NCBI GenBank assembly: GCA_017617435.1
Contig: JAFZWF010000008.1
Coordinates: 6,258-70,257 of the forward strand
Reading direction: 5' to 3'
Length of the DNA: 64,000 bases
Source: Bacilli bacterium
GTDB lineage: Bacteria; Bacillota_I; Bacilli_A; RF39; UBA660
Part shown: piece after piece, positions 24,955 through 26,600 of the stretch
Numbering within the stretch: position 1 is the stretch's first letter
Layout: the number at the start of each line of letters is the position of its first letter
Made by a program: the position numbers and the translations under genes
The notes under the pieces: generated by a model
What the model was told of the DNA's origin: nothing
Seen by the model: the letters and a program-made list of their open reading frames with translations, nothing else
Database searches by the model: none

Positions 24955-25485
24955 TTATACATTTTTATCAAATATATCTTTTCTTATAAACATATCATTA
25001 GTTGTCCCATTTGTTGTAAATGTACCAATATTTTCAATTATTGGTAAAGAAAATTTATAAAATATTTGTATTTCATAATACATTGTAATATTTTTATTTG
25101 CAGGACTTCCATAGCTTCCTGCTTCATTATCTTTATTTGTAAATTTTCTTATGCAATAATAATAATCTTTATTATTATTAGTAACTTCTACTAATGTATT
25201 ACCTTCAAGGTCATTACATCCATACCATACAGGATCATTAATTGTTTCAGCTGTTTGCTGTGGACATCTATATTTATAACTATAACCAGAGTTAGTTAAA
25301 TAGTTATTAATAAGAGCTACGCTCTTTTTATTAACGCTTCCGTTTTTTTCAATAATGTTTATTACTTCATTTTTTAATTTGTAAGATTTAGAATATGTTA
25401 GTGTTAAAAATAAAAAACCTACAAATAAAAGAATAAAGATAACAACAATTTGAAATATCCATGTACTACCTATTGATTCTCTCAT
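24955..25485 (-). CDS. Prepilin-like minor pilin or pseudopilin (TadE/TadF-like role)
   Basis: N-terminus MRESIGSTW followed by a 22-residue hydrophobic helix. 176 aa. Paralogue of the next gene. Confidence 0.6.
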   Translation of the reverse strand: MRESIGSTWIFQIVVIFILLFVGFLFLTLTYSKSYKLKNEVINIIEKNGSVNKKSVALINNYLTNSGYSYKYRCPQQTAETINDPVWYGCNDLEGNTLVEVTNNNKDYYYCIRKFTNKDNEAGSYGSPANKNITMYYEIQIFYKFSLPIIENIGTFTTNGTTNDMFIRKDIFDKNV

Positions 25486-25501
25486 AAGTTATTATCACCT
25501 A

Positions 25502-26017
25502 CTATTTTACACCCTGATTATTTGGATATAGTATTTTTGTATCACCTGTTACTTTAAAAGACATAACATAACTTATTACAGGAAGATCAAGTTGATAAAA
25601 CACAGCAACTTTATAGTAATATGCTTCTGGTAGTTCTTTGATATTTGAATTTACTGCAACTTGTTTAATACAATATGAAGCTTGGGTATCTGTTTGTCTT
25701 CCTTCACGGTCAAAACCTACCCATCTTTCAGGTTCATTTGAATTATTTTGTAAGTTATTACAATTTCCGCTAGTTCTATAAGATACTGTTGCAAGTCTTC
25801 TTGTAATTGAATCTATGCACGGATCATGCAAGTTACCATCAGATTTAGTAACATTGTTTAAATCTATACCATTATATCTTTCAATTGTTTCTAATATATC
25901 ATCCTTTACAGCAAATGCTTTAGAATGATTTATTGAAAGGCAGATATAACCAGCAAAAATAAAGATAAAGACAATAACAATAGATAAAAGCCAAGTACCA
26001 CCTATCGATTCCCTCAT
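25502..26017 (-). CDS. Prepilin-like minor pilin or pseudopilin (TadE/TadF-like role)
   Basis: N-terminus MRESIGGTW followed by a hydrophobic helix. 171 aa. Confidence 0.6.
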   Translation of the reverse strand: MRESIGGTWLLSIVIVFIFIFAGYICLSINHSKAFAVKDDILETIERYNGIDLNNVTKSDGNLHDPCIDSITRRLATVSYRTSGNCNNLQNNSNEPERWVGFDREGRQTDTQASYCIKQVAVNSNIKELPEAYYYKVAVFYQLDLPVISYVMSFKVTGDTKILYPNNQGVK

Positions 26018-26032
26018 ATTCTTACCACCTAT

Positions 26033-26323
26033 CTACCCCTTATATGGACAAACTACTTCTGTACCAGTTTTATCACTACTACTTGAGTAGTAAGTACATC
26101 TAACTTTAGTACAAACTTTAGTATCACCATAATCTTTAAATTCTACGCAAGTGTTTTTAAGCTCTGATTTTGTTGTTTTACAAATTGCTTTTGAACACTG
26201 TGTATTACGATCTAAATTTCTTTTAAGCATAGGCCAAAAAACTGTAAAGAAAAAAGTCGATAGGATTCCTACCGCTATTACAACAAATACAGTTGCGTTT
26301 AGTTCACCAGTCGCCTCTCTCAT
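26033..26323 (-). CDS. Short prepilin-like protein (candidate major pilin 2), 6 Cys
   Basis: MREATGELNATVFVVIAVGILSTFFF: short charged leader, Gly, hydrophobic helix. 96 aa. Confidence 0.65.
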   Translation of the reverse strand: MREATGELNATVFVVIAVGILSTFFFTVFWPMLKRNLDRNTQCSKAICKTTKSELKNTCVEFKDYGDTKVCTKVRCTYYSSSSDKTGTEVVCPYKG

Positions 26324-26351
26324 TTTTTATTAGCCCCTTTTAATTTATTAA

Positions 26352-26600
26352 TTAATTACATGATTTAGATGATGTTTTACCATCTTTAGTCATAGTACAT
26401 GTTCCATTAGAACAACTTATACTATAGTCATCAGTTTCATCTGTATAAGTTTCTCCTCCGTTACTACTTTGGCAAGCATTATTAAGAGCAACACTTGATT
26501 TTATACCAGGTAAAATAAATACAGTAAAAATTAATCCTACAGCAGCAATAGCAACAACAGCTATAACTGTCATATTTAATTCTCCAGTAGCTTCTTTCAT
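26352..26600 (-). CDS. Short prepilin-like protein (candidate major pilin 1), 4 Cys
   Basis: MKEATGELNMTVIAVVAIAAVGLIF. 82 aa. First gene after a consensus promoter, with an AAGGAGG RBS. Confidence 0.65.
   Translation of the reverse strand: MKEATGELNMTVIAVVAIAAVGLIFTVFILPGIKSSVALNNACQSSNGGETYTDETDDYSISCSNGTCTMTKDGKTSSKSCN

Follow-up and report, generated by a model that had tools for sequence, protein, structure and literature searches.

Candidate type IV filament subunits with a short, glycine-ended leader in a Tad-like module adjoining type IV secretion genes of uncultured Bacilli

Prepilins are recognized by their class III signal, a hydrophilic leader of 6 to 26 amino acids (aa) that ends in Gly and is followed by about 21 mostly hydrophobic residues, usually with Glu5; the Gly is critical for prepilin processing, and Glu5 is dispensable for it (PMC4471445). 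Several described systems bear on the locus treated here. In a predicted system of gut Clostridia, DUF5411 is linked to CpaF, PilC, and a large surface/invasion-domain protein (Miller et al. 2022, PMC9523054). TANB77, a group of uncultured gut Firmicutes, has a lineage-wide Tad-like cluster whose pilin-like proteins are recognizable only by context and topology (PMC11680825). Patescibacteria carry a chromosomal, lineage-wide, relaxase-less monoderm type IV secretion system (T4SS) with VirB2-like arrays (PMC12102498), and on the conjugative plasmid pLS20, gene 37 is listed as VirB11 and genes 36 and 38 to 47 are listed as unknown (PMC8557374). Here, we analyze a stretch of 64,000 nucleotides from a Bacilli bacterium (contig JAFZWF010000008.1 of assembly GCA_017617435.1; lineage RF39, UBA660), referred to below as the window, in which five genes with a common start encode pilin-like proteins. 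We regard this set as probable type IV filament subunits of a previously uncharacterized variety, belonging to a Tad-like/T4SS hybrid.

Five genes with a common start

The five genes and the signals ahead of the first of them are as follows.

26352-26600, minus strand: small pilin-like protein of 82 aa, start MKEATG/ELNMTV, 4 Cys; candidate major subunit (ORF translation)
26033-26323, minus strand: small pilin-like protein of 96 aa, start MREATG/ELNATV, 6 Cys, C-terminal CPYKG; candidate major subunit (ORF translation)
25502-26017, minus strand: pilin-like protein of 171 aa, start MRESIG/GTWLLS; paralogue of the 176-aa protein (motif statistics)
24955-25485, minus strand: pilin-like protein of 176 aa, start MRESIG/STWIFQ; remotely DUF4320-like, candidate minor subunit
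30593-31015, minus strand: DUF5411 pilin-like protein of 140 aa, start MKESYWG/YWLILL; PF17424 match, candidate minor subunit
26643-26737, minus strand: terminator-like hairpin (26737-26708) followed by the promoter TTGATA-17-TATAAT (26671-26643), ahead of the 82-aa gene

A preliminary description of this DNA had reported five open reading frames (ORFs) with these N termini, each followed by a hydrophobic helix. All five are present on the minus strand with translations that agree, and in each the shared start M-[KR]-E-[AS]-x(1-2)-G precedes a run of 26 uncharged residues. A six-frame scan of the window, whose G+C content is about 27%, finds the motif at a start codon five times, always in these genes, and 50 shuffles of the window sequence yielded no motif-start ORF of 60 aa or more. 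There are two pairs of paralogues, the 82- and 96-aa proteins (E = 4e-11) and the 171- and 176-aa proteins (BLASTP E = 8e-19). The Cys counts given for the two small proteins are correct, and so is the statement that their genes stand behind a strong promoter and ribosome-binding site of their own: the promoter listed above was located, with AAGGAGG upstream of the 82-aa gene start at 26600, and the hairpin lies 3' of the preceding gene, which encodes a 262-aa protein.

We assembled 163 related loci (2.03 Mb) extending 10 kb to either side of relatives of these genes. The form M-[KR]-[EQD]-x2-3-G is kept in 489 of the 526 genes of the five families. Within it, Met1 does not vary in the family alignments, nor does the Gly immediately before the helix in any of the five families of the clade, and Glu3 is nearly invariant in four of them, with Glu and Gln alternating in the 176-aa family. 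The first 12 residues of the small proteins (MKEATGELNMTV) hardly vary; column identity over the remainder averages 36%. The homologues of about 85 genome loci have a stop codon close upstream of the start, at a median distance of 1 to 5 codons, and almost none has an in-frame start farther upstream; the N terminus is therefore exact. At the conserved positions, synonymous codons vary freely, with, for example, all four Ala and all four Gly codons in use, a sign of selection at the protein level; for the same reason, RNA-level conservation of the 5' ends was rejected.

The composition of the set is equally stable. Exactly two small proteins, two mid-size proteins (150 to 180 aa), and one DUF5411 protein occur in 68 of 72 complete loci, and among the 182 unique small proteins, 176 contain either 4 or 6 Cys. 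Such even counts would fit an extracellular disulfide-bonded domain. Most homologues of the small proteins also end in C-x-[WYF]-K-G (CVWKG, CPWKG, CPYKG, and similar), a conserved C-terminal motif.

Word-seeded searches return only 6 close relatives for the 96-aa protein and 33 for the 176-aa protein, and a profile of the 176-aa family matches 1452 representative clusters at E <= 0.001, nearly all of the best matches aligning from residue 1. Among GTDB species genomes, 141 contain a relative according to pattern scans. Metagenomes add at least 227 contigs, from a scan seeded with the DUF5411 family, since the alignment of the 241-aa family (below) was too variable as a seed. All 80 loci kept are metagenome-assembled genomes, labeled mostly as uncultured Bacilli, "Tenericutes," or Erysipelotrichaceae, with a few others, such as Muribaculaceae. 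We are thus dealing with a widespread unannotated machine, four of whose five protein families have no family assignment.

The Tad-like module and its plasmid relatives

The five genes belong to an operon whose order is 241-aa protein, 1972-aa protein, DUF5411 protein, CpaB/RcpC-like protein, ATPase, 297-aa protein, 262-aa protein, two small proteins, 171-aa protein, 176-aa protein, and 331-aa protein. The gene order of this module is that of Tad loci. Its other members are listed below.

36945-37670, minus strand: 241-aa protein with signal peptide, conserved Cys, and C-terminal membrane anchor; first gene of the operon (translation)
31030-36948, minus strand: 1972-aa Cys-rich secreted protein with signal peptide; candidate adhesin or tip cargo (ORF and position)
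29789-30568, minus strand: divergent CpaB/RcpC-like protein with N-terminal membrane anchor (TIGR03177, PF16976)
28459-29751, minus strand: secretion ATPase of the CpaF/TadA-FlaI-VirB11 group (PF00437, E = 2.2e-27)
27524-28417, minus strand: 297-aa polytopic membrane protein in the TadB position (conserved family)
26736-27524, minus strand: 262-aa polytopic membrane protein in the TadC position (conserved family)
23944-24939, minus strand: 331-aa protein with a degenerate P-loop, in a TadZ/CpaE-like position (kept in 76 loci)

The locus has a dedicated ATPase of the PilB/TadA/GspE family, whose best relatives among solved structures are CpaF (E = 3e-19), then FlaI, then VirB11 (E = 2e-14). The CpaB/RcpC-like protein of the window stays below the cutoffs (17 versus 28.8 bits; for TIGR03177, E = 2.5e-7 and 30 versus 71 bits), and PF16976 (RcpC) is matched by 23 of the 24 members of its family, with a best E of 2e-6; a PDB search with this family gave nothing meaningful. 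The 140-aa protein matches DUF5411 (PF17424) over its full length at 196 bits (E = 3e-58), far above the gathering threshold of 30 bits.

The position of these genes in a Tad-like order, together with the single N-terminal helix, the small size, and the N-terminal signal common to five dissimilar families, leads us to conclude that the five proteins are probably subunits of a type IV filament-like (Tad-like) module. The two Cys-rich small proteins, with their own promoter, would be the major subunits, and the DUF5411 protein and the two DUF4320-like proteins of 171 and 176 aa would be minor or priming subunits. Each would be inserted into the membrane via its N-terminal hydrophobic helix, leaving a disulfide-bonded C-terminal domain outside the cell. 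The CpaF-like ATPase and the two polytopic proteins would then extract the subunits and stack them via these helices into a short fiber across the cell wall, guided by the CpaB/RcpC-like protein. This fiber would probably carry or position the giant 1972-aa Cys-rich surface protein, and it might cooperate with the adjoining relaxase-less T4SS in cell-cell contact or transport.

Profile searches and structure prediction give this reading partial support. The preliminary description had stated that the proteins fit neither the Flp nor the TadE pattern. Both statements hold: no window protein matches Flp_Fap (PF04964) at E <= 1, residues +5 and +6 of the small proteins are T-V rather than part of a G/xxxxEY motif, and no window protein matches PF07811 (TadE). 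Nor did the searches place the five proteins in an unrelated membrane protein family. The only recurring weak matches are to DUF4320 and the archaeal Pilin_N. DUF4320 (PF14208) gives 13.5 bits for the 176-aa protein, against a gathering threshold of 25 bits, and weak matches in 4 of 73 family members (best E = 0.0026); Pilin_N is matched weakly by 12 of 82 small proteins (best E = 0.0047). Profile-profile alignment (hhalign) of the 171/176-aa family with plasmid-encoded DUF4320 proteins gives E values of 1.9e-4 and 4.7e-4, in register from residue 1. AlphaFold predicts for the 176-aa protein (mean pLDDT confidence, 84.7) a helix of 46 residues (3 to 48), a second helix (53 to 65), and a four-stranded β-sheet.

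Several results, here and in the section on the leader, weigh against the pilin reading. The families that two or more of the 82 small proteins match do not include Flp_Fap, and TadE is absent among the matches listed (25 of 28 families) for the 73 family members. A Foldseek search of the PDB with the 176-aa model found no match (best E = 0.35), neither to pilins nor to VirB8/NTF2 folds, and sequence and profile searches of the PDB with DUF5411 and the 171/176-aa family returned nothing meaningful. The two polytopic proteins stand in the GspF/TadB/TadC position, but Pfam, PDB profiles, and a low-confidence model assigned them to no family. Given the lack of a Foldseek pilin match and platform proteins that are not assignable to TadB or TadC, we treat the five proteins as candidate members. 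In their setting beside genes for a CpaF/TadA-like ATPase and a CpaB/RcpC-like protein, they do behave as the pilin-like set first described; they probably work like type IV pilins, and the earlier interpretation is partly supported. Gene order, conservation of the motif, the predicted combination of helix and sheet, and the families of the ATPase, the DUF5411 protein, and, less clearly, the CpaB-like protein are shown here, whereas filament formation, the division of roles among subunits, leader cleavage, and cooperation with the T4SS are inferred.

The 297-aa protein, with at least 8000 clusters, is the most conserved component and exceeds the adjacent pilin-like genes in conservation by far. 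Its best 120 relatives are 73 to 90% identical, nearly all exactly 297 aa long, and named "hypothetical" wherever they are named. It matches no Pfam family, no T2SSF hidden Markov model (HMM), and no PDB profile. AlphaFold reached a pLDDT of 61 from input sequences that are 73 to 90% identical, and we discarded the Foldseek matches of this low-confidence model (GPCRs and helical bundles) as meaningless. The 262-aa protein has no Pfam (including T2SSF, PF00482) or PDB profile match, and hhalign found no significant similarity between the 297-aa and 262-aa families or between these and p38 and p39 of pLS20. The 331-aa protein, without a Pfam or PDB match, contains a Walker A-like VTNGAGATT in which the Lys is replaced; this P-loop aligns weakly but in register (hhalign E = 0.0037) with the ParA-like ATPase of the Bacillus thuringiensis module described below, and the protein may be an inactive TadZ/CpaE-type organizer. 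Neither the 241-aa nor the 1972-aa protein has a Pfam match. Homologues of the former occupy the same position in related loci (87 ORFs), and the 1972-aa gene stands where pLS20-family plasmids have the Tie adhesin and B. thuringiensis p04 has an 852-aa protein.

Plasmids carry comparable modules. For the secretion ATPase, the best plasmid matches come from Bacillales hosts, on plasmids that are conjugative or mobilizable. In pBatNRS213, of the pLS20 family, the order is Tie adhesin, p36, "VirB11," two membrane proteins, a DUF4320 protein (p40), two 47-aa proteins, VirD4, and VirB6; p36 of this family matches PF17424 weakly (6.3e-5) and the 140-aa DUF5411 protein of the window at a BLASTP E of 5e-5. 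In p04 of B. thuringiensis HD-771, a large surface protein is followed by DUF5411, SAF (CpaB-like), AAA (ParA-like), and T2SS/T4P ATPase proteins, two membrane proteins, an 89-aa protein, and a DUF4320 protein; this module is an intermediate form. On these grounds, the window module appears to be a remote relative of the gene 36 to 41 module of pLS20-type conjugative plasmids. Such a Tad-like module is described neither in the pLS20 papers nor in the 2025 T4SS review, which does not mention pLS20, and a literature search found no paper on DUF4320.

The N termini of the plasmid-encoded relatives have an acidic residue at position 3 (MLE, MLD, MQE, or MSE). Tandem proteins of 47 to 50 aa also occur there (four copies in Brochothrix), with MLDQN(A/T)DR leading into a hydrophobic helix and no Gly before it, while the B. 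thuringiensis p04 version is 89 aa long and has about 41 residues ahead of the equivalent helix. We see in these 47- to 50-aa and 89-aa proteins possible small subunits of the plasmid modules. They lie in the following plasmid loci.

L002: 12173-12485
L003: 7461-8189 and 12148-12294
L166: 8740-9009

The leader and its processing

The preliminary description likened the N termini to a class III (prepilin) signal and called the leader of 6 to 7 residues ultra-short and noncanonical. The first point stands in part: MKEATG, MREATG, MRESIG (twice), and MKESYWG are short leaders that end in Gly and precede a hydrophobic run, but the acidic residue at +5 is missing. The second point does not stand, since six residues is also the length of the leader of Pseudomonas aeruginosa PilA, at the lower limit of the accepted range (PMC4471445), and the length is therefore not anomalous. 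What is truly unusual is the missing acidic residue at +5 combined with an almost invariant Glu3. Judged by sequence, M-[KR]-E-[AS]-x-G would be a minimal class III-type signal, with six residues, a basic position 2, and an invariant Gly before the helix.

The remaining points against the pilin reading concern this signal. The PilFind motif, [GAS]-x4-[DE] plus 14 uncharged residues, fails in all five proteins because the acidic +5 residue is missing; across all families, residue +5 is T, Q, L, M, F, or V and never acidic. The invariant Glu leaves the leader without net positive charge, and, by sequence, the helix of the small proteins has its more basic flank at the C-terminal end. Another unusual feature of the small proteins is Glu at +1. 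In the plasmid relatives, the Gly before the helix is often missing. Finally, a dedicated prepilin peptidase is found in every known type IV filament system (PMC4471445), and scans for the A24 motif drew a blank in the window and in the 163 related loci.

Within the window, the earlier statement that no A24 prepilin peptidase is present was upheld by each search made: GxGDxK occurs in no frame of the 64 kb, the looser G-x-[GA]-D-x-[KR] does not occur in a membrane protein context, and none of about 70 window ORFs matches Peptidase_A24 in Pfam. The plasmid modules of the pLS20 family, Brochothrix, and B. thuringiensis likewise have no annotated peptidase gene. Prepilin peptidase genes that are unlinked to their substrates have precedent, however, and the Gly is invariant. 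For these two reasons, our leading reading, tentative and given somewhat less than an even chance, is that an A24 prepilin peptidase whose gene lies in another part of the genome cuts the proteins after the Gly.

It is also possible, if rather doubtful, that these are leaderless pilins: the hexapeptide would be retained, the proteins would start with Met1-x-Glu3, Glu3 would take the role of Glu5, and no prepilin peptidase would be needed. Positions 2, 3, and 6 pull in different directions here. The nearly invariant Glu3 in four of the five families (Glu/Gln in the 176-aa family) and the acidic position 3 shared with the plasmid relatives, in which the Gly often is not, speak for retention, yet an invariant Gly directly before the helix is the exact position at which a prepilin peptidase cuts. 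Methionine aminopeptidase should be unable to remove Met1 ahead of a Lys or Arg, which agrees with a retained leader, but such a residue at position 2 would also place a charge in the filament core. The lack of annotated peptidase genes in the plasmid modules fits a peptidase-free mechanism, as does the B. thuringiensis DUF4320 protein, which aligns with the 171/176-aa family from residue 1 in hhalign; the Bacillus hosts of such modules nevertheless have ComC, and the plasmid sample comprises three modules only. The empty A24 scans of the window and related loci point the same way, but all type IV filaments known to date have a prepilin peptidase (PMC4471445). Taken by itself, the more general proposition that the leader is not cleaved at all strikes us as possible, at perhaps slightly better prospects.

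A hexapeptide without an acidic +5 residue and with no peptidase nearby offers a natural test of universal prepilin processing. Were the leaderless reading true, the type IV filament superfamily would gain its first branch that does without a peptidase, common to the chromosomal T4SS/Tad hybrid of gut Bacilli and the gene 36 to 41 module of pLS20-type plasmids, and some Gram-positive T4SSs would build a pilus-like fiber. Gram-positive T4SSs are generally said to lack pili; a Tad-like fiber module fused to such a T4SS, with relatives on plasmids, is a concrete prediction to the contrary.

Adjoining secretion genes and comparison with known systems

The context that the preliminary description missed is that of a chromosomal T4SS/Tad-like hybrid whose Tad-like module is also found on pLS20-type and B. 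thuringiensis conjugative plasmids. T4SS genes follow directly downstream of the Tad-like part.

9132-23795, minus strand: type IV secretion genes as a whole (Pfam matches)
23436-23795, 22957-23433, 21304-22848, and 20040-21287, minus strand: four VirB2-like genes (PF18895) with a shared two-helix hairpin
17265-20021, minus strand: 918-aa protein in the VirB6 position (position)
14600-16384, minus strand: VirB4-like ATPase (Pfam)
9132-11609, minus strand: VirD4 coupling protein (Pfam)

The VirB2-like array, headed by a promoter TTGACA-17-TAAAAT at 23841-23813, consists of two short proteins (119 and 158 aa; PF18895) and two long ones (514 and 415 aa) that have the hairpin in internal or C-terminal parts (E = 9e-16 and 6e-10).

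With these genes so close, the five proteins might instead be bitopic components of the T4SS channel or of its wall-spanning part, their N-terminal peptide serving as a cytoplasmic docking motif for an ATPase that is really VirB11. We consider this unlikely. The ATPase does score with VirB11 and TrbB models, its best NCBIfam match is TIGR02788, and the homologous pLS20 gene is called VirB11 among "unknown" neighbors (PMC8557374), but among solved structures CpaF and FlaI rank above VirB11, and the locus has a CpaB/RcpC-like protein and the Tad gene order. Foldseek matched no pilin and the platform proteins have no family, yet no VirB8/NTF2-like fold was matched either. The strong promoter of the first small gene, as for an abundant structural subunit, and the fixed 2+2+1 set with a common N terminus argue further for filament subunits.

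Still less probable is that the whole cluster is an integrated conjugative element whose pilin-like genes make a mating pilus for DNA transfer. Genes for VirD4, VirB4, VirB6-like, and VirB2-like proteins adjoin, and conjugative plasmids carry the nearest relatives of the module that have annotation, but the window ORFs scanned with Pfam include neither a relaxase nor an integrase, and the cluster is bracketed by housekeeping and sporulation genes: DedA/VTT, RmuC, PBP5, pseudouridine synthase, and YunB beyond VirD4, and Metallophos, CotZ, FtsW, TyrRS, and LeuRS on the upstream flank. A megablast of the module against plasmid and phage collections found no near-identical DNA, and a tblastn of the DUF5411 and 176-aa proteins against PLSDB found no match. 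The Metallophos and FtsW neighbors are kept in distant relatives, which points to vertical inheritance of a chromosomal machine with no obvious mobile element. An integrated conjugative element or a plasmid origin was rejected on the basis of the missing relaxase and integrase and the fixed chromosomal site. From its genomic setting, the machine appears to be part of the chromosome, and to be inherited vertically, in many uncultured low-GC gut Bacilli.

Between the operon and the upstream flank lies the only protease gene near the cluster, shown here with a second gene found at this end of several related loci.

37827-38486, plus strand: CPBP/Rce1-like intramembrane protease with intact motifs EEIIFR, FGFAH, and HVLHN (PF02517, E = 1.6e-17); divergent from the operon
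L011:239-691, L038:138-578, L047:155-589, L052:145-597, and L012:1-316, minus strand: thioredoxin-like gene (CSHC motif) in related loci

That this protease is the leader peptidase of the system, in place of an A24 enzyme, is very improbable: its catalytic motifs are intact, it stands immediately upstream of the operon start, this single position accounts for 25 of 25 CPBP matches in related loci, and it is kept in relatives whose pilin-like proteins are only about 45% identical, but of the 43 loci that extend 800 nt or more upstream, just 22 have the gene, as do 11 of the 21 that extend 4 kb or more, loci without it have the same Metallophos and FtsW genes abutting the operon directly, it is absent from the plasmid relatives, and we know of no CPBP enzyme that cuts class III signals. 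A gene found in about half of the loci, between flanks that are otherwise the same, is an optional gene at a fixed chromosomal site and hence unlikely to encode a dedicated peptidase.

The thioredoxin-like gene encodes a membrane-anchored protein (CSHC) and lies between the operon start and the CPBP gene in several related loci. The secreted proteins of the cluster are often Cys-rich. These features suggest dedicated extracellular disulfide formation.

Comparison with described systems shows where the window agrees with each and where it departs. The T4SS of Patescibacteria, likened here by description, also has tandem VirB2-like genes and is chromosomal and relaxase-less; it belongs to another phylum, and the window adds a Tad-like module in the same operon. 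The parallel in setting may relate to the lifestyle of uncultured low-GC gut Bacilli. The TANB77 cluster, in which TadBC is a single fused protein of 693 aa, the ATPase has 640 aa, and T4SS genes are lacking, has an architecture unlike that of the window. The system of Miller et al., compared by description, combines DUF5411, a CpaF ATPase, and a large surface protein in gut Firmicutes, as the window does, but its PilC/GspF protein is recognizable, no T4SS genes are reported, and it occurs in Roseburia, Ruminococcus, and Eubacterium rather than in this Bacilli clade.

The plasmid modules, namely, genes 34 to 41 of pLS20, Brochothrix pL21564-1, and B. thuringiensis HD-771 p04, have the same order of adhesin, DUF5411-like protein, ATPase, two membrane proteins, small hydrophobic proteins, and DUF4320 protein; the p04 version also has the CpaB-like and TadZ-like genes, and like the window module, they adjoin VirD4, VirB6, and VirB4. 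They differ in being plasmid-borne and accompanied by a relaxase, whereas the window cluster is chromosomal, with no relaxase found among its scanned ORFs. Similarity between plasmid and window proteins is marginal (E = 5e-5 to 5e-3), and the plasmid N termini mostly have neither the invariant Gly nor the MKEATGELN block of the window proteins.

With type IVa pilins and the pseudopilins of type II secretion (T2SS)/Com systems, the window proteins share a leader of 6 to 7 residues, a basic residue near the start, Gly at -1, and more than 20 uncharged residues, and the model of the 176-aa protein has a long N-terminal helix and a β-sheet, reminiscent of the pilin fold, in which an extended N-terminal α-helix packs against an antiparallel β-sheet. 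In contrast, they have no Phe or Met at +1 and no Glu at +5, carry an acidic residue inside the leader, and match no solved pilin by sequence or Foldseek.

The Tad/Flp pilus (Aggregatibacter tad, Caulobacter cpa) shares the most with the window in gene order: CpaB/RcpC, a CpaF/TadA ATPase, two polytopic proteins, small pilins, and genes in the TadE and TadZ positions. The window ATPase is closest to CpaF among solved structures, and the RcpC domain is detected in the CpaB/RcpC-like family. The window set differs in lacking the G/xxxxEY motif, in matching neither the Flp nor the TadE HMM, in a leader of 6 aa compared with about 26 aa in Flp1 of A. actinomycetemcomitans (PMC4471445), and in a locus without tadV whose platform proteins are not recognizable as T2SSF. 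It differs further in its small subunits, which have a Cys-rich C-terminal domain, and in its setting, as the module is embedded in a T4SS cluster.

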